From an uncultured bacterium (GTDB taxonomy: Bacteria > Patescibacteriota > Patescibacteriia > Magasanikbacterales > UBA922), in contig CALMAY010000038.1 of assembly GCA_937861125.1 (NCBI GenBank), positions 126,921 to 190,920 of the forward strand: a DNA stretch of 64,000 nt, read 5' to 3'. Below are positions 4,051 through 64,000 of the stretch, one piece after another (positions within the stretch are counted from its first letter, which is position 1; every line of letters begins with the position of its first letter). The notes under the pieces were generated by a model that worked only from the letters and a program-made list of their open reading frames with translations, did no database searches and was not told the origin of the DNA. The translations under genes and the position numbers were made by a program.

Positions 4051-5403
4051 ATATTGCAGTGAATGTAGATTTCGTTTCGTTTGGTGTGTTCCGTAAAAAT
4101 AAATAGTTCGTCTGCTTTGATCAACACCAACTGATTCGATGTTGTCTGTTTGTAGGAGAAGCTGGCTGGTATAAAATCCAGGGTTAAAACCAATCAGTTG
4201 GTTTTTCTTTGTGATGAGGATGACACCAGTATCTTCGAGTGCGAGTACGGATAAGATTGGTTCATCGGTTCGATAGATTGTGTTGTATGTCCCGTCAGCG
4301 TAGAGCAGAGCGATTTCGTACGGGCTATAGAGCACCCACTCTCGCGTTTGTGGTATGTAGATGCTGTGTGGGCCGGGGAGTATAGTGGCACGCTGTGCGC
4401 CGTCCCATTCTTTTGTTATGTGTGTATGTTGATTTCCTGTTTTGATAAGGGCTGCGCTTTCGGTTGCAAAGAGAATGGTGTCAGCGTCAAGTGATGAAAA
4501 AAACATCTCACCATTGCGTGATAGGGATCGTGTGGTGGTGCTGTATGACCAGACGTCGTTTCCATCAGCTGTGTACCAGATAGCAGTGCTCGATGGGTAG
4601 TTGAGTGGTGAGAGTGTTTCATTGGTAATTTTGGTGGAAAGTGTGGATGTGCCAACAAACAGTGAGGCACTACTGAGCAGTGTGTCGGTCCACTGATAAT
4701 GGAGCGGTGTTGATGTTGGAATGATAATTTCTGTGAGTGGTTTTGTTTGTTCGCTGTTTGTAGATATGGTGAACAGTCTTTTTTGTGTTTGTTCGTTTAG
4801 TACGATGGCAGCATGTTCACCGTTGTCTGACCACATAACGTTGATAGTGCTATCCAGTGGTGTGGTTGTGATACTGCTGTATCGTTCTGCGCTCGCATTG
4901 TCGACGAGATGGATTTCTTGTGTCGTTGTTGTTGGTAGGACCATGATACTTTTATTTCCGTTTGGAGCAAAGAAAATGTGTCTAGCACCAACCACTTCAG
5001 TAGTGCCACTAATCTCGGGGGGTGTATTGTCAGCAAACAATGTCAACCCTTTGATATATGTCGTCTGGTTACTTTCAATGCGAATATCTTTTTTCCAGGT
5101 ATGATATCCATCTGCTGAAATCTCTACGGTGTATGTCCCTGGCGCACGGTTAAATAATTTAATTGGCATGGTGTCATCAAGTATTACGTCATTGATTTTG
5201 ACGGTTGCTCGTTTTGGTAATATATCGATATTCAGCACGCCGGTTGTTTTGATAGACTGTGTCGCGAGATCAAATCGATATCCCATCGTATAGAGCAAGA
5301 CGAGTGGTGCGAGGATAAAAAATGAGAGGACCAAACAGGCCATAATAAGGCGCCGCACTGGTCGTGTAAGATAGGTTTTTTCAGGAAACGGCATAGGTTG
5401 CAA
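4048..5403 (-). CDS. Membrane-anchored PEGA-domain protein with beta-rich extracellular region
   Basis: N-terminal TM helix (LIMACLVLSFFILAPLVLLY). PEGA-like segment ATVKINDV...GTYTVEISADGYHTWKKDIRI. Confidence 0.6.
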   Translation of the reverse strand: MQPMPFPEKTYLTRPVRRLIMACLVLSFFILAPLVLLYTMGYRFDLATQSIKTTGVLNIDILPKRATVKINDVILDDTMPIKLFNRAPGTYTVEISADGYHTWKKDIRIESNQTTYIKGLTLFADNTPPEISGTTEVVGARHIFFAPNGNKSIMVLPTTTTQEIHLVDNASAERYSSITTTPLDSTINVMWSDNGEHAAIVLNEQTQKRLFTISTNSEQTKPLTEIIIPTSTPLHYQWTDTLLSSASLFVGTSTLSTKITNETLSPLNYPSSTAIWYTADGNDVWSYSTTTRSLSRNGEMFFSSLDADTILFATESAALIKTGNQHTHITKEWDGAQRATILPGPHSIYIPQTREWVLYSPYEIALLYADGTYNTIYRTDEPILSVLALEDTGVILITKKNQLIGFNPGFYTSQLLLQTDNIESVGVDQSRRTIYFYGTHQTKRNLHSLQY

Positions 5404-24275: not shown

Positions 24276-24857
24276 ATGCTAGAACGTGGATCACGGACAA
24301 TTATACTAGAAGATGAATATTCTCTTCCGCTTAAAATGGTAGAGAGAACTGAGCATGCATTGGCTAGTATGAGAAATTTTATAGAGATGTGTGAGACTAA
24401 ACTCCCTCAACAACAAGAGGAGTTACTTGCTTTGAAGAAATCTATCGATACTGTTGGTGGGTCGTTACGTCTAACCAGACAGAGTGGTAGTACGGATGAT
24501 CAAAAAAAGAACTTAATAGCTGAGTTAAATCGATTGCGAAGGTTATTTGCAGAAAAAAAGGAAATTTTTTCTGAAAGACTTCAAGAATATGATACATCTA
24601 TTGAGAGACATAATGAAATAGTGGATTTGAATGAACTTCGAGTATTGCTAGATGAGAGTTTTGATAAAGAAATAGCTGCTTTTGTCAAATATCTTCAAGA
24701 AACACTTGGTTTTGATGGTAAGGGAGATGTGCAGCCACCGCAGATGGGTAATTTTGGTGAGAGACTTGTAGGTGGTATCTTAATAGCAGATAAAACGAAC
24801 CGAGCACTTGGTGGTAAACCCATCTTAAGTGATAAAGACGACAGAACTAGTAAATAG
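24276..24857 (+). CDS. Hypothetical coiled-coil protein
   Basis: N-terminus MLERGSR. Long charged helical segments. No recognised family. Confidence 0.55.
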   Translation: MLERGSRTIILEDEYSLPLKMVERTEHALASMRNFIEMCETKLPQQQEELLALKKSIDTVGGSLRLTRQSGSTDDQKKNLIAELNRLRRLFAEKKEIFSERLQEYDTSIERHNEIVDLNELRVLLDESFDKEIAAFVKYLQETLGFDGKGDVQPPQMGNFGERLVGGILIADKTNRALGGKPILSDKDDRTSK

Positions 24858-24876
24858 AATTATTTTCTCTTTGTGT

Positions 24877-26199
24877 ATGAATAAAAAAACTTCTCAAGAT
24901 CTCTCATACTCTCTGCACGCGACAGACACCTATCGTGATACGTGGCGTATTTTTCGTATCATGTCTGAATTTGTCGAGGGGTATCAGATGATGTCACAGA
25001 TGGAAAAAGAGGTAACTGTGTTTGGATCAGCCCGTTTAGCCGAATCAACATCAGAGTATAAAACAGCGCGTGCACTCGGTGCGTTGCTTGGAGAACATGG
25101 GTATACGACGATTACGGGTGGTGGTCCTGGTATTATGGAAGCAGCCAATCGGGGTGCGTTTGAAGCTGGTGGAGAGTCAGTGGGGCTCAATATTCAATTG
25201 CCGTTTGAACAGCGTATCAATCCGTATGTCAAAAAAGCGCTTGGATTTTATTACTTTTTTACTCGCAAAGTAATGTTAACCTCACCATCTGCTGCGTTTG
25301 TCTTTTTTCCTGGTGGATTTGGGACGATGGATGAATTTTTTGAGGTGGTAGATCATATTGAGACAGGCAAAATGTGTCGTGTGCCAATTATTTTGGTTGG
25401 AAAAACATTTTGGCAACCACTCCTTGATTTTTTACAGACTAGTGCATGTGATCTTGGTTCTGTTACCAAAGAACAAATTGATTCTTGGGTGCTAGTAAAT
25501 ACTGCAGAAGAAGCATATGAAGCGATTGAGTTGGGCAAGGGTATGAAGGGTGAGTGTGATCTTTCTGCACATAACTTTAGTTCGGATAAAAATGTTGATT
25601 GGAGAATTTTTCGTATTATGTCTGAGCTTGTTGAGGGATTTGAATTTCTCACCGGAGTTTCCAATGATGTCTCAGTACTTGGAACAAAAAATGTACAACC
25701 TGGAAATAGGTATTATGCTTCTGCACAAAAGCTAGGTGCATTGATTGCTCAATCAGGTATGGCAACGATTACTGGTGGCGCAGAGGGAATTGCTGAGGCA
25801 GCAAACAAGGGTGCATTTGAGGCTGGTGGTGAGTCACTTGGAATCGGTATGGAAGTACGAGGAAAAACGGTATTGAATCAATATCTTTCTCGTTCAATTA
25901 CGTTTACATTTCCATTTACACGCAAGCAAATTATCACTGCTCCGTCACGTGCTTTTGTGTTTTATCCTGGTGGTTTTGGGACACTTCATCATTTGTTTGA
26001 GGTGTTGACACTGATTCAAACCAAAAAAATGAAAAAAATGCCAATTATTTTGGTAGATCATGCGTATTGGGAGCCGCTTCATGTATTTATCAAAAAAGTA
26101 ATGGTACACGATCTGGAGACGGTGCATGATGAGGATGACGAATTGTATGAAGTTGTTGATAGTGAAGAGGCAGTGATGGAGGTGGTGAATCGTGTATGA
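24877..26199 (+). CDS. Tandem-duplicated LOG / TIGR00730-family (Rossmann nucleotide phosphoribohydrolase-like) protein
   Basis: Two repeats each start with WRIFRIMSE(F/L)VEG. Repeat 1 has GGGPGIMEAANRGA and PGGFGTMDEFFE. Repeat 2 has GGAEGIAEAANKGA and PGGFGTLHHLFE. Confidence 0.8.
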   Translation: MNKKTSQDLSYSLHATDTYRDTWRIFRIMSEFVEGYQMMSQMEKEVTVFGSARLAESTSEYKTARALGALLGEHGYTTITGGGPGIMEAANRGAFEAGGESVGLNIQLPFEQRINPYVKKALGFYYFFTRKVMLTSPSAAFVFFPGGFGTMDEFFEVVDHIETGKMCRVPIILVGKTFWQPLLDFLQTSACDLGSVTKEQIDSWVLVNTAEEAYEAIELGKGMKGECDLSAHNFSSDKNVDWRIFRIMSELVEGFEFLTGVSNDVSVLGTKNVQPGNRYYASAQKLGALIAQSGMATITGGAEGIAEAANKGAFEAGGESLGIGMEVRGKTVLNQYLSRSITFTFPFTRKQIITAPSRAFVFYPGGFGTLHHLFEVLTLIQTKKMKKMPIILVDHAYWEPLHVFIKKVMVHDLETVHDEDDELYEVVDSEEAVMEVVNRV

Positions 26200-27494: not shown

Positions 27495-27582
27495 GGAGAG
27501 TTCGCATAGTGGCCTAGTGCGCCGCCTTGGAAAGGCGGTATACCGCAAGGTATCGAGGGTTCAAATCCCTCACTCTCCGCCA
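27495..27582 (+). tRNA. tRNA-Ser (anticodon GGA), long variable arm, genomically encoded CCA
   Basis: Acceptor GGAGAGT/ACTCTCC. Anticodon stem CCGCC/GGCGG with loop TTGGAAA. Variable arm TATACCGCAAGGTATC. T-arm GAGGG-TTCAAAT-CCCTC. Discriminator G plus CCA. Confidence 0.9.
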
Positions 27583-29299: not shown

Positions 29300-31135
29300 A
29301 TGTCATCTCCTGTACAGGTTCTTCAGAGTAAATTTGGATACGAAACATTTCGTTTTCATCAAAAAGATATTATCGACGCCATCATGAAAAAACATGATGT
29401 GTTTGTGTTGATGCCGACCGGCGGGGGGAAGTCACTCTGTTATCAGATTCCTGCATTACTCATGGATGGACTGACGATTGTGATATCACCCTTGATCGCA
29501 CTGATGAAAGATCAGGTAGATGCGCTACGGCTTAACGGTGTCTCGGCGGCATATCTCAACTCATCACTGGGTGCAGCTGAAGCAGCTGATATTTACAAGC
29601 AATTACGCAAGGGTGAGATAAAACTTCTTTATGTCTCTCCAGAGCGCCTGATCCAAAACAACCAGCAGTTTTTGGTGTATCTGCGAGAGCTTAATGTCTC
29701 TCTCGTTGCGATTGATGAGGCGCACTGTATTTCACATTGGGGGCATGATTTTCGTCCGGAGTACCGCATGCTTTCGAATCTCAAAATGCATTTCCCAAAA
29801 GTACCCATCATTGCACTCACTGCGACCGCGGATCATCTCACTCGTGAAGACATACTCACGAAGCTCAAACTCAAAAACCCAAAAGTCTTTGTTTCGAGCT
29901 TTAATCGTCCCAATATTCGTTATACGATTACACAGAAAAGAAACATGTATGAGGGTATCATCTCGTATTTACGAAAACATCCTGATGATTCGGGTATTAT
30001 CTATGTCTTATCGCGCAATTCAGCGGAAAAGATGGCAGAGAAACTCACCGATGACGGATATTCTGCGCGAGCGTATCATGCTGGGCTCACACCTGAGCAG
30101 CGTCAACGTAACCAAGAGGCCTTTCTCAAGGATCGGGTGAAGATTATGGTAGCAACCATCGCCTTTGGTATGGGGATCAACAAATCCAACGTACGCTTTG
30201 TGATTCATGCAGATCTGCCGAAAAATATTGAGAGTTATTATCAGGAAACTGGGCGAGCGGGGAGAGATGGGCTCAATAGTGATGCGATACTGTATTATAG
30301 CGGAGGAGACGTGACCAAGCTCAAGAAGTTTGCCATGGTGGAGGATAATCCAGAGCAGACACGCGTGATGCTTCACAAACTGTCACAAATGGCGACACTC
30401 TGCGAAGCGAATGCCTGTCGACGTCGAGCGGTGCTCAATTATTTTGGCGAAGAGGCACCTGAGGAGTGTGGTAATTGTGATGTCTGTCTAACAACCAAAG
30501 AAACATTTGATGCGACGGTTATCGCGCAGAAAGCGCTCTCTGCTGTAGCACGTCTCGAGAGTCGCTATGGACTGACCTATGTCGTTGATTTTCTTCGTGG
30601 TTCCAAATCAGAAAAGATTCAGGAACATCATAAAGAGTTGAAAACCTATGGAATAGGGAAAGATATTTCCAAAGAAGCATGGTATCTGTATTTCAAAGAT
30701 TTGCTCGCGATGAACTATTTACGCCAAGCAGGGACTGAGTATCCGATTTTGGCGTTGACAGAAAAAAGTCGTGATGTTTTGTTAGGACGCGAAAAAGTGT
30801 TTTTGGTGAAAAAAGAACTCAGTACCAAAGAAACTATCTTGTCCGAACAGGCGTATGAACATGAGTTATTTGATATTCTCAAACAAGTACGAACCGAAGT
30901 GGCGCAACGAGAAAATGTACCAGCGTATCTGGTTTTTTCAGATTCGACGTTGGTTGAGTTGGCGACCTATTTGCCACTCACACTATCAGATATCCGTAAG
31001 ATTTCTGGATTTGGTGATATTAAGTTGGAGAAGTATGGTGCAATATTTTTAGAACCAATTGTCGAGTATTGTCAGCAGAAACAATTGCAGACCAAGATTG
31101 ATGAAAAGGTACCGAAACGAGAACGACGTGTGTAG
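29300..31135 (+). CDS. recQ: ATP-dependent DNA helicase RecQ
   Basis: FGYETFRFHQKDII, MPTGGGKSLCYQIPAL, DEAHCISHWGHDFRPEY, RQC Zn motif CRR...CGNCDVC, C-terminal HRDC. Confidence 0.95.
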   Translation: MSSPVQVLQSKFGYETFRFHQKDIIDAIMKKHDVFVLMPTGGGKSLCYQIPALLMDGLTIVISPLIALMKDQVDALRLNGVSAAYLNSSLGAAEAADIYKQLRKGEIKLLYVSPERLIQNNQQFLVYLRELNVSLVAIDEAHCISHWGHDFRPEYRMLSNLKMHFPKVPIIALTATADHLTREDILTKLKLKNPKVFVSSFNRPNIRYTITQKRNMYEGIISYLRKHPDDSGIIYVLSRNSAEKMAEKLTDDGYSARAYHAGLTPEQRQRNQEAFLKDRVKIMVATIAFGMGINKSNVRFVIHADLPKNIESYYQETGRAGRDGLNSDAILYYSGGDVTKLKKFAMVEDNPEQTRVMLHKLSQMATLCEANACRRRAVLNYFGEEAPEECGNCDVCLTTKETFDATVIAQKALSAVARLESRYGLTYVVDFLRGSKSEKIQEHHKELKTYGIGKDISKEAWYLYFKDLLAMNYLRQAGTEYPILALTEKSRDVLLGREKVFLVKKELSTKETILSEQAYEHELFDILKQVRTEVAQRENVPAYLVFSDSTLVELATYLPLTLSDIRKISGFGDIKLEKYGAIFLEPIVEYCQQKQLQTKIDEKVPKRERRV

Positions 31136-31145
31136 CGTCTTTTTT

Positions 31146-31266
31146 GTCATCCCGAGCGAAGCCGAGGGATCCCTTTCTTATATCTAATTTAGCCAGAACG
31201 AAGTGAATAGAAGTCTTGTAGCTTACGAAAGGGATCCCTCCACTCCCTACGGTCGGTCGGGATGAC
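31146..31266 (+). repeat. 121-nt structured dispersed repeat, copy A (arms X ... Y')
   Basis: GTCATCCCGA...TCGGGATGAC termini. Inner stem GAGGGATCCCTTTC/GAAAGGGATCCCTC. Core AGCCAGAACGAAGTGAATAGA is shared with the copy at 54464-54584. Confidence 0.85.
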
Positions 31267-31305
31267 AAGAGTGGGGCAGATAATTCAATCATTTATAGAG
31301 TATTT

Positions 31306-54463: not shown

Positions 54464-54584
54464 GTTATTCCGAACCGCACCAAGTGGGTGAGGAATCGCT
54501 TTCTTAAATATGTTTTAGCTAGAACGAAGTGAAAAGAGATGATGCGACTTGCGAAAGTGATCCCTCGGCTACGCTCGGGATGAC
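54464..54584 (+). repeat. 121-nt structured dispersed repeat, copy B (arms Y ... X')
   Basis: GTTATTCCGA...TCGGGATGAC termini (two G-U pairs on the plus-strand RNA). Core AGCTAGAACGAAGTGAAAAGA. The right arm is the near-exact reverse complement of the copy-A left arm. Confidence 0.85.
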
Positions 54585-55951
54585 AGGTGGGAAACTAACT
54601 CATCAATCATCCCTCGAAATCCATGCGACCCAAGAAAGACGACACAATCACCAGTGTTTGTCTCTGAGAGTATTGTCTCAACTACCTGTGTATCATCTTC
54701 AATATAACGAACACCACTATGTGTCTGCGCAATCACCTCAGTGAGTCGCACACCATCAAACGGAGGACTCATATCATCTGCTGCGATTTTTACCGCTGTG
54801 AGTTTGGGGATAATGACTGTATCAGCATTGGCAAATGCATCGGCATATTGTGGCACTGCTTCTTCTTTGCGGTTGCCTGTGTTTGGTTCGTATACAGCGA
54901 TAATTTTTCCGCTATATAGTTCACGCAATGTTTTGAGTGATGATGCTGCTTTGGTCGGAGAGTGGGCAATATCGTCAAAGATGGTGATGTCACCTTCAAA
55001 CCGTTTTTGTAAACGTCGAGCGATGCCTGGGAATGAAGTAATACTTGATTGAATTTGTTCCAGAGTGAGTCCGATTTCAAGTGCGAGTGTCGCACATGCT
55101 GCGATGTTATCGGCCATGTATGTGCCGATGAGTGTGCTGCGTAGCTCGATAGTGTCTGTCGGTGTGTGAAGTGAAAAGCTGATACCATCTTTTGTCCCGA
55201 CAATATCTGAGTAGGTGTACTCTGCGCCTGTTTCTCCATATCGTACAACACGACACTGTGCGTGTGAGATGATAGACTCTGGCACACGAGTAGATGCGAC
55301 GATGAGCCCATCTGCTGGGACACTTGCAACAAGTTTCTGAAATACCTCAATGTACGCTGCCTCTGTCGGGTAGACGTCCATATGATCCCACACAGTTGCA
55401 GTGAGGAGGAGGTGTGTTGGTTTGTAGTGATTGAATTTTGGTCCATTGTCCCAACGTGAAGTTTTATATTCATCACCCTCGACGACGCTCCATGTCGCTG
55501 TATCACTGATCTGTGCAGAGGGAAATGTAGTGTCACTGCAAAGTCCACCAAACATATAGTTTGGATGCATACCAGATTTTTCGAGGATCCAGCTCATGAT
55601 CGTGGCAGTAGAAGTTTTGCCAAATGTACCTGCGCAGACGATGGAGTGTGGTGCAATCAAATATTTCGCAATCAATTCTGGATATGAAACGTAAGGGAGT
55701 TTTTTTTCTTGGACGTAGAGCCACTCTGGATTGGTACTCCCAGCGACATTTCCAACCACGACCAAATCAGGTGTACCCATCTTTTCTGGATGCCAGCCTG
55801 GATAGTAGTTGACTCCTGCATCTTTGAGATGAGTAGAAACTGGCGGATAAAAACCCACATCACTGCCAGTGACAGTATGTCCGTTTTTGTGTAGTGCGAT
55901 GGCGAGTGCGCTCATGCCGACGCCGCAGATGCCGATGAAGTGGGTATGCAT
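54569..55951 (-). CDS. mpl: Mur ligase, Mpl-type (UDP-MurNAc:L-Ala-gamma-D-Glu-Dap ligase-like; could function as MurC)
   Basis: HFIGICGVGMSALA..GHTVTGSDVGFYPPVSTHL, GTFGKTSTATIMSW, EGDEYKTSRWDNGPKFNHY, colinear with E. coli Mpl. The last codons (SSRA-stop) lie in the repeat. Confidence 0.75.
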   Translation of the reverse strand: MHTHFIGICGVGMSALAIALHKNGHTVTGSDVGFYPPVSTHLKDAGVNYYPGWHPEKMGTPDLVVVGNVAGSTNPEWLYVQEKKLPYVSYPELIAKYLIAPHSIVCAGTFGKTSTATIMSWILEKSGMHPNYMFGGLCSDTTFPSAQISDTATWSVVEGDEYKTSRWDNGPKFNHYKPTHLLLTATVWDHMDVYPTEAAYIEVFQKLVASVPADGLIVASTRVPESIISHAQCRVVRYGETGAEYTYSDIVGTKDGISFSLHTPTDTIELRSTLIGTYMADNIAACATLALEIGLTLEQIQSSITSFPGIARRLQKRFEGDITIFDDIAHSPTKAASSLKTLRELYSGKIIAVYEPNTGNRKEEAVPQYADAFANADTVIIPKLTAVKIAADDMSPPFDGVRLTEVIAQTHSGVRYIEDDTQVVETILSETNTGDCVVFLGSHGFRGMIDELVSHLSSRA

Positions 55952-62409: not shown

Positions 62410-63666
62410 TTAGTGTGTTGTTGGGTGTTCGTGGTGGTCGCCACTTGTGAAATCTTTTGTATATATAACTGGCTGTTCTGGGCCAGTTATATCTAATATT
62501 GCCCAAGCACCTTTGTTCATACGGGCGAGCGCATGATCAACAATGAGGTATTTACCGGGAACAGAAGCAGTAAACTCAACAATTGTTGCGCCTCCAGGCA
62601 GCACTGCTGTAGTTTGAACGTTTTTGAGAATAGTAGAACCTACGCCAATAGCAGCTTCGGGATAGACTGTGTCAAAAATTTCACCAATCACGTGAAACGA
62701 CGAGACGAGATTGACTCCACCATTTCCTACGTACATACGAACTCGATCACCAACGTGTGCCTGAAAACGAGTTGACTGTTCTATTTTTCCGTTAAAGACA
62801 ACGTAGTTTGGATTACCGTCCAGGAGTGCTTGCGAATCAAATTGAATCAAGCCACGTTTCCCAATGTCACCTTTTGCGTAGAACTCTCCTTGCATGAGAT
62901 AAAATTCTTTTTCTACTGGTGGAAGTGCAATGCTAATATCTTTTGGATCAACCATGATCATGCCATATTGTCCATGTGAGTTGTGTGTACTAACATTAGG
63001 CATCGCACAGTGATAGACGTATAACCCAGGGTTGAGTGCAGTAAAGCGAAATGATTTTGTTTCACCTGGAGCAACGTGTGTCGCTTCTGCGCCACCGCCA
63101 GGCCCATTGACGGCGTGTAAGTCAATATTGTGGTGATGAATACTTGTGCTATCGTTAGTGAGTGTTATTTCGACAAGATCACCTTCACGAATACGTAAAA
63201 ATGGTGCAGGAACTTGTTCGTTGTATGTCCAGTAATTTTGGTAAATACCAGGAGAGATTTCTGAGATAACTTCTTTGGCTGTCAGGTGAATTCGTACAAT
63301 ACCATCAGCGTCTGGTGCAATCGGTTGTGTGAGGGCTTCACTTGGGGCCGCGATGTCTTCGACGTGTTTGAAGTTGTTTTTGTGTATGAGAAAGTCGAGA
63401 ATATTGTGAAATGGAATACTGGGTGGCAGTCCACCTGGTGCGTGTGAATGCATAAAGAGCGGCATGGCAAAGTCAGGTGGATAGGTACGATTGGCCATGA
63501 GTCCAGCGCCAAGTGCGAGTACAAACAGAAGGATGGGTATGTATATCCCTGGTTTGATAACGAGTTTATGAATAGTTCTCTGTTGGTAGAGGTGAATACA
63601 CAACACGATCAGCGCACTAAGGCCGATGAATGCTGCGATAATTTCAAAGATGAGATAGAGAAACAT
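62410..63666 (-). CDS. nirK: Copper-containing nitrite reductase (NirK), membrane-anchored
   Basis: N-terminal TM segments. HHHNIDLHAVNGPGGG (type 2 Cu His). YVYHCAMPNVSTHNSHGQYGM (type 1 Cu Cys/His/Met). Confidence 0.8.
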   Translation of the reverse strand: MFLYLIFEIIAAFIGLSALIVLCIHLYQQRTIHKLVIKPGIYIPILLFVLALGAGLMANRTYPPDFAMPLFMHSHAPGGLPPSIPFHNILDFLIHKNNFKHVEDIAAPSEALTQPIAPDADGIVRIHLTAKEVISEISPGIYQNYWTYNEQVPAPFLRIREGDLVEITLTNDSTSIHHHNIDLHAVNGPGGGAEATHVAPGETKSFRFTALNPGLYVYHCAMPNVSTHNSHGQYGMIMVDPKDISIALPPVEKEFYLMQGEFYAKGDIGKRGLIQFDSQALLDGNPNYVVFNGKIEQSTRFQAHVGDRVRMYVGNGGVNLVSSFHVIGEIFDTVYPEAAIGVGSTILKNVQTTAVLPGGATIVEFTASVPGKYLIVDHALARMNKGAWAILDITGPEQPVIYTKDFTSGDHHEHPTTH

Positions 63667-63671
63667 AATGG

Positions 63672-64000
63672 TTATCGTATTGAGATGTGTGTTACATGGT
63701 GAGTAAAAAATGTTCGTGCAATATCTTTCATTTCTTGTAGGTTAAATGGCTGACAATGAGCAAATGCTGGATCAAGTGTGTGGCTTGGGCGAAATGATTG
63801 TAAGACATAGTTTTGTGCACCAGAGACGAGCACTGACATCTCTTTGAGTACTGACTCGATGTGAATATCTTTTATTAAAGTAGTGCGAAATTCGTAATTA
63901 ATTGTACTTGATTTGATGATCTCAATACTTTTTTTGATGTTTTCTGGATTGGTTCGTTTGCCTGTGAGAGTCATATATTGTTCTAGTGATGTTTTGACAT
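63672..64000 (-). CDS. Radical-SAM activase C-terminal part (anaerobic ribonucleotide reductase activase NrdG-like), 5' end beyond window
   Basis: Frame stays open to nt 64000. INYEFRTTLIKDIH...YVLQSFRP pattern is typical of the NrdG/TIGR02495 family C-terminus. Confidence 0.55.
   Translation of the reverse strand, partial: VKTSLEQYMTLTGKRTNPENIKKSIEIIKSSTINYEFRTTLIKDIHIESVLKEMSVLVSGAQNYVLQSFRPSHTLDPAFAHCQPFNLQEMKDIARTFFTHHVTHISIR

Follow-up and report, generated by a model that had tools for sequence, protein, structure and literature searches.

The 64,000-nt stretch of DNA analyzed in this work, hereafter the window, belongs to NODE_4 (266.7 kb) of the ENA assembly ERZ724532 and carries two copies of a dispersed repeat, A and B, both of them 121 nt long and correctly delimited in the initial annotation of this DNA (Table 1). 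Copy A starts 10 nt past the stop codon of recQ, and msrA follows 39 nt beyond its end; the element is alone in the recQ-msrA interval (31136-31305). Copy B is located between a Mur ligase gene (54569-55951, minus strand) and a NUDIX gene, also on the minus strand, and the 3' end of the Mur ligase gene falls within the S unit of B, the last codons reading ..LSSRA before the stop codon TAG. The homologues of the flanking Mur ligase and RecQ proteins are named Candidatus Magasanikbacteria or Patescibacteria. A third locus, copy C, lies between another gene pair and was seen in two assemblies of the same study (L012 and L013); the gene upstream of C ends in frame inside the short-loop unit (...LSSRTK-TGA) and the gene after it starts 11 nt past the L unit. 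Three independent loci are therefore known, and the insertions are found at gene 3' ends, in intergenic spaces that are very short.

Table 1. Positions of the repeat copies, their parts and the adjoining terminator-like hairpin in the window
Feature	Position	Strand	Remarks
Terminator-like hairpin of recQ and T run	31125..31145	+	Copy A starts directly after the T run
Copy A, form I, complete	31146..31266	.	S arm - core(+) - L arm; perfect 10-bp outer and 14-bp inner stems
S unit of A	31146..31171	+	GTCATCCCGA-GCGAAGCC-GAGGGATC; S unit also in IMG/VR contigs
49-nt core of A	31178..31226	+	Conserved block TTTAGCCAGAACGAAGTGAATAGA at 31188-31211
L unit of A	31233..31266	-	GTCATCCCGA-CCGACCGTAGGGAGTG-GAGGGATC on the minus strand
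Copy B, form II, decayed stems	54464..54584	.	Plus strand: L arm - core(+) - S arm
L unit of B	54464..54497	+	GTTATTCCGA-ACCGCACCAAGTGGGT-GAGGAATC; 8 nt from the NUDIX start codon
49-nt core of B	54504..54552	+	Conserved block at 54514-54537
S unit of B	54559..54584	-	Loop GCGTAGCC; supplies the gene end of the Mur ligase

Anatomy of the element and exchange of its arms

Each arm of the element consists of one unit, GTCATYCCGA-loop-GAGGRATC, which has a short form, S, with the 8-nt loop GCGWAGCC, and a long form, L, with a 16-nt loop (arms X and Y of the initial annotation, respectively). Two such units stand head to head and are extended by CNCTTTC/GAAAGNG around a core, whose limits we set by cutting at the CTTTC/GAAAG boundaries; every core measures 49 nt and none is self-complementary. 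The predicted fold comprises a 10-bp outer stem, an asymmetric bubble of 8/16 nt and a 14-bp inner stem that ends in a loop of about 45 nt. Within the unit itself, the palindrome is limited to a 5-bp ATCCC/GGGAT stem plus the GCGNAGC centre. The element thus described has terminal inverted repeats, a small size and no coding capacity, and it presents two inverted REP-type units around a spacer in a hairpin fold.

A repeat search of the window returned a direct repeat of 77 nt with 78% identity (31164-31240/54490-54566) and an inverted repeat of 33 nt with 94% identity (31145-31177/54553-54585). The 24-nt core block and the 26-nt S arm have two matches each in the window, where none is expected from 100 shuffles. 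The cores of A and B are 71% identical in the same orientation versus 43% as reverse complement, and the comparisons of A with B or C give 71-76% and 42-47%, respectively. The left arm of A, for its part, is 92.6% identical to the reverse complement of the right arm of B versus 57% to the left arm of B, the S arm lying on the plus strand in A and on the minus strand in B with a single mismatch (A/T in the loop). These core and arm identities establish that the arm swap around a co-oriented core is real and that, as the initial annotation had proposed, the core is inverted relative to its asymmetric arms. When read along the local minus-strand transcription, copy B runs S arm - core(-) - L arm; along transcription, A, B and C are all S-first, with the core in plus orientation in A and in minus orientation in B and C.

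We also considered whether core orientation was tied to replication. GC skew marks the plus strand as the leading strand over the whole window (+0.05 to +0.25, with a mostly negative AT skew) and over L012, and on this strand the cores of A, B and C are oriented +, + and -, so that orientation is independent of replication and this candidate was discarded.

Presence and absence of the element among relatives

Relatives with flanking proteins at least about 90% identical have empty sites at the A and B loci. The A locus is filled in L056 (RecQ 98% identical) and empty in L020, L021, L022 and L057 (RecQ 91-94% identical). The recQ-msrA interval of L020, L021 and L022 holds one to two genes (hypothetical proteins, His_Phos_1, Peptidase_M23, NUDIX), and in L057 a gene starts directly after recQ, at the cut end of the contig. 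At the B locus, L018 carries the element with its core oriented as in the window, whereas L019, from the same 90% protein cluster, is empty, with only 4 nt between the stop codon of the Mur ligase gene and the NUDIX start codon. The L018 variant shows one change in the 49-nt core and a 20-nt insert within the S unit. This insert (CCTGCCTGTCGGCAGACAGG, L018:2905-2950) is itself a small hairpin and may represent a nested insertion or a template switch. As judged from protein C-termini, an 83%-identical homologue ends ...QLSSSRMRGS, resembling another unit in the same frame, and three closer homologues have an empty-type C-terminus, which suggests a patchy distribution at the B locus.

The filled and empty alleles of B differ by replacement of about 45 nt and not by a clean insertion, which counts against the reading as an inserted element. 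No direct repeat of the kind left by target-site duplication flanks A, B or C, and none appeared in the comparison of the two B alleles. Neither a parent insertion sequence nor, among the genes of the window, any transposase or recombinase domain was found. The element is present twice in the 64 kb of the window. A search with nhmmer, using the four-copy alignment, recovered no further copies in about 190 kb of Magasanikbacteria DNA, including about 125 kb of related DNA, and no match at E <= 10 came up among 5.8 billion proteins for a profile built on the open frame that spans the element (..HFVLAK..); the family therefore appears to be low-copy and narrowly distributed. Nonetheless, the empty and filled sites, the third copy and the unit doublets described below bear out the proposal that this is a MITE/REP-like dispersed element.

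Wider collections were searched as well. A 20-mer of the core gave only a chance match, in a Rhodospirillales coding region, against GTDB genomes, copy C plus two chance matches against metagenomes, and no match against viral contigs. An L-unit pattern scan of sequence collections gave no match, BLAST of copy A and of a doublet from contig L006 against plasmids and cultured phages returned nothing significant, Rfam yielded no family at the gathering threshold nor at E <= 10, and a literature search by DNA string and translated peptide found nothing relevant to the element or the unit. The pattern of the inner-stem/core junction had 12 viral matches which, as none of them had arms, were set aside as chance matches.

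RNA structure and decay of the stems

The initial annotation had remarked that the differences in the terminal stem of B are G-U compatible only in plus-strand RNA. This is literally true: between GTTATTCCGA and TCGGGATGAC the plus strand forms two U-G pairs and the minus strand two C-A mismatches, and the RNA folding energy of copy B is -37.3 kcal/mol on the plus strand versus -28.7 on the minus strand. B, C and the L018 variant have in common the U-G at outer position 6, which indicates a single ancestral change, and the C-to-T change at position 3 is found only in copy B of the window, on the G- and T-rich leading strand. As one of the two changes is shared by descent, the G-U pattern rests on one or two mutations, and it fits a leading-strand C-to-T bias.

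The RNAalifold analysis of A, B, the L018 variant and C (30 pairs) showed no compensatory pair, with a covariation term of +0.31. The stem differences are one-sided, with B, C and L018 all lacking a pair at inner-stem position 9. All 24 stem pairs are intact in copy A, and B and C, the older copies, have decayed to 3-4 mismatched or wobble positions. Compared with shuffled sequences, copy A has z-scores of -5.0/-5.8 as RNA and -6.0 on both strands as DNA; copy B as DNA folds no better than shuffles (z = -1.3 and -1.0).

These data bear directly on the possibility that the element is a structured RNA, either a 3'-UTR element or a small RNA, whose long stem presents a conserved apical loop. Such a function would account for (i) the strong folding of copy A, with z = -5, (ii) the conserved block of 22-24 nt within the core, (iii) the location of every copy immediately downstream of genes, and (iv) the G-U compatibility of the stem changes of B on the strand carrying the core in plus sense. 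However, no compensatory change was found, the core is sense to the operon in A but antisense in B and C, and, relative to the Mur ligase-NUDIX operon, the wobble pairs would favor the antisense strand. Besides, the element is absent from close relatives, it has no Rfam match even at the permissive threshold, and the G-U pattern is that of the leading-strand C-to-T bias. We consequently regard a structured RNA as very unlikely, and the suggestion that the element evolves under RNA-structure constraint is not upheld by the decayed stems of B and C or by the change of core sense between copies.

The arm unit in other genomes

Pattern scans located the S unit in 28 IMG/VR stretches; under a relaxed pattern, more than 40 unrelated IMG/VR contigs with GC 0.44-0.67 yielded S units as well as L units, the L loops measuring 16-22 nt. 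In these contigs the unit occurs solo or in head-to-head doublets. The latter (n = 14) measure 75-201 nt and have unrelated spacers, and S/L pairs make up eight of the 14 when A, B and C are counted. The L loop of A (CCGACCGTAGGGAGTG) and a loop of L038 (GCGACCGAAGGGAGTC) agree in 13 of 16 bases in a direct comparison. The occurrence of the unit, alone or doubled, in more than 40 contigs identifies the architecture of the element as that of a REPIN-like or foldback-MITE doublet. Furthermore, the arm unit is nearly identical in the 42%-GC Magasanikbacteria genome and in phage-like contigs of 55-67% GC which, together with the lack of Rfam and literature matches, points to an unrecognised and widely shared repeat system.

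Solo units within one contig share direction. Seven of them lie on the same strand in L038:1563-8041, where the GC skew is about -0.45; same-strand series, mostly between genes, are also seen in L035, L036, L040, L041, L043 and L045, and 30 of 37 solo units are on the C-rich strand. The doublets of L043 sit among phage sheath, tube and GpU genes, and the unit-rich contigs L036 and L043, when searched for a link to a transposase, showed nothing beyond phage tail genes or had no domains at all. Under standard DNA parameters, the folding of solo units does not exceed that of shuffles (z about 0). GCGAAGC is the sequence of a very stable DNA mini-hairpin, and standard folding parameters may undervalue GNA triloops; the GCGAAGC centre hints at a role of the unit in single-stranded DNA.

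Part of the core also has likenesses within the unit family. The core block AGAACGAAGTGAA (31195-31207 and 54521-54533) resembles GGAACGAAGTGGA in an L loop (L006:4749-4784), CAACGAAGTG in a spacer (L051:4129-4167) and CACGAAGTG in an L loop (L036:2853-2892). The block and its likenesses are all C-GAA-G mini-hairpin motifs, and either homology or shared design may explain them.

The exchange of arms recurs in L006, an unrelated contig with GC 0.60, which carries two doublets 140 nt apart, S-spacer-L' and L-spacer-S'. Their spacers, TTCGCATTATCGTACTATGTA and TTCGCACCATCGTACTGCGTA, are identical at 17/21 positions in the same orientation versus 13/22 as reverse complement, a comparison to be read with the spacer being short and partly palindromic. 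As in A and B, conservation between the two forms is good for the S arms and spacers and poor for the L arms. Loop inversion thus seems to recur in this type of element. A second repeat, GGGCATGTGCCCGCGGACAATGCGTGATCGGC, follows each doublet (L006:4790-4900 and 5010-5100), giving a BIME-like mixed cluster.

Discussion

The best-supported reading of these results, which we favor with moderate confidence, is that A, B and C belong to a foldback mobile element of REPIN/MITE architecture, non-coding and apparently low-copy, which resides in a Candidatus Magasanikbacteria lineage. It would be a selfish element that undergoes occasional loop inversion between its inverted arms, and not an RNA gene or a switch. 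Its S and L units stand as inverted arms around a family-specific 49-nt core, the whole folding as a long hairpin. The element would insert as a unit, and in B and C it furnishes the upstream gene with its final codons and its stop. A trans-acting enzyme, possibly working on single-stranded DNA, may mobilise the units. Form I (A), S-core(+)-L', and form II (B and C), S-core(-)-L', would differ by a hairpin-loop inversion between the inner inverted arms of 14-16 bp, occurring at least once in the history of the family by intramolecular recombination or by template switching in replication.

Some observations count against this reading. The L arms of the two forms are only about 70% identical and the S arms 93%, which a simple recent inversion does not predict, and the core block of 22-24 nt is better conserved than neutral decay suggests. 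The shuffle-like folding of solo units and the failure to find a transposase, target-site duplication or parent element weigh in the same direction. Moreover, with only three independent loci, one inversion and other histories are statistically inseparable. The two forms might instead have arisen by modular assembly or arm conversion. One version has the core as a separate small insert, bounded by CTTTC...GAAAG, which could enter in either direction the loop of a doublet made of arms alone. In a second version the core would stay fixed, and gene conversion from other units would swap the S and L loops. Doublets of arms alone, having short unrelated spacers, do exist elsewhere, nested insertion occurs (the 20-nt hairpin of L018 in the S arm of B), the L arms are far less conserved between forms than the S arms, also in L006, and the core block GAACGAAGTG appears as well in an L loop of L006, with a near-variant, AACGAAGTG, in the spacer of L051. 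Nevertheless, such a history needs at least two coincident events at exactly the same position in place of a single inversion, the nhmmer search of about 190 kb of Magasanikbacteria DNA turned up no copy made of arms or of core alone, the cores are all exactly 49 nt, and the empty sites lack the whole element. We therefore deem a modular origin unlikely.

The initial annotation had also compared the repeat to an inverton, a family whose core can flip by recombination between its inverted arms. This proposal stands in part, since an inversion between the inner arms is the most economical origin of the two forms. An active switch, in which a recombinase would flip the 49-bp core at each locus and alter expression of the downstream gene, is highly improbable. 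The existence of two forms and the same swap in L006 would agree with it, and so would the Logan contigs L015 and L056, which end inside the element, if population heterogeneity were the cause. On the other hand, no domain of a recombinase or transposase was found in the window; neither strand showed a sigma-70-like promoter in or near copies A and B, their cores included; the orientation of B is identical in two strains; the inverted repeats of B have mismatches; and the 49-bp segment is far below the size of known invertons, all of which are, to our knowledge, far longer. In addition, the Logan contigs end off the expected breakpoints, L015 at 25 nt into B (L015:11368-11392) and L056 at exactly 31 nt into A (L056:1930-1960), 31 nt being presumably the k-mer size of the Logan assembler. 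Such contig ends could stem from heterogeneity among strains, collapse of the repeat or coverage lost at the hairpin.

The loop-inverting foldback element that we favor shares traits with several known systems. Like the BIMEs of E. coli, in which the Y and Z REPs put two unit types in one doublet, it combines S and L. As in the REPINs and BIMEs of Pseudomonas and E. coli, inverted short units surround a spacer, form a long imperfect hairpin and are intergenic. REPIN doublets are known in two configurations, which are loosely comparable to the two forms described here (PMC3337134). The differences are nevertheless substantial: (i) no RAYT (Y1 transposase) was seen in the window, so that membership of the REPINs proper cannot be claimed, (ii) the GTAG head is missing from the units, whose palindrome is weak and limited to 5 bp, (iii) the copy number appears very low, with two copies in 64 kb and none in most related DNA, (iv) the unit is shared across very different genomes, whereas REPIN units are species-specific, and (v) the core is conserved, unlike REPIN spacers. 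The foldback MITEs (Correia/NEMIS, ERIC and Rickettsia palindromic elements) are likewise of about 120 nt and non-coding, with terminal inverted repeats and presence/absence polymorphism, and they too can extend or terminate neighbouring reading frames. The absence of target-site duplications in our comparisons, however, argues against membership of the classical MITEs; in addition, no parent insertion sequence was found, and the arms are here copies of a unit that also occurs solo.

For the inversion, the closest parallel is found in plastid DNA, where hairpin-associated small inversions of 4-50 bp have been described (PMC12371153). In these inversions, for which that article cites Kelchner & Wendel 1996, loops of up to about 50 bp flip between the stem repeats, repeatedly and with no dedicated enzyme; the plastid loci are fixed, whereas here the family is dispersed and mobile. 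In our case the flip is visible only because the stem has an asymmetric bubble. Invertons such as fimS and the Bacteroides promoter switches also have a segment bounded by inverted repeats in two orientations, but at one locus, whereas the two orientations described here are at different loci, in a segment several times shorter for which neither an invertase nor a promoter was found. The terminal hairpins of parvoviruses exist as flip and flop isomers, an asymmetric hairpin interior in two inverted-complement states. The element resembles them in this respect; in parvoviruses, however, the whole interior flips upon terminal resolution at the end of a linear genome, while here the element is chromosomal and only the part distal to the bubble differs. 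Integron attC sites were considered as well and rejected, as the element ends in GTCATYCCGA ... TCGGRATGAC, without the core sites RYYYAAC ... GTTRRRY.

It is tempting to speculate that the unit is the recognition hairpin of an enzyme of single-stranded or cruciform DNA, distributed across phyla and perhaps carried on phages, which would mobilise the doublets and flip the inner segment. We consider this a long shot. If it were true, the 49-bp core would be among the smallest invertible DNA segments known and the unit would define a class of REP-like sequences that is new and spans phyla. Few descriptions exist of mobile repeats in CPR bacteria, and the present results indicate that small CPR genomes carry foldback elements which rewrite gene ends by adding new C-terminal residues and stop codons. 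They also carry a warning, as the inversion of hairpin loops can give dispersed repeats signatures that look like those of an RNA or a switch.

Other features of the window

Several features of the window lie apart from the element. A long hairpin (2847-2925) directly after a gene ending at 2828 is followed by a T run, in a terminator-like arrangement, and contains three tandem copies of CTACTCTGC in one arm. The gene with two LOG/Lysine_decarbox-type domains contains an internal duplication (24829-26199) with a spacing of 657 nt, which includes the repeat families D7, D8 and D11. The sole tRNA gene of the window is a tRNA-Ser (GGA) at 27495-27582. Finally, in the region 62625-64000 (L014:1-1573), the gene calls split the anaerobic ribonucleotide reductase NrdD into two neighbouring genes (629 and 70 residues), and the gene of its radical-SAM activase comes next.
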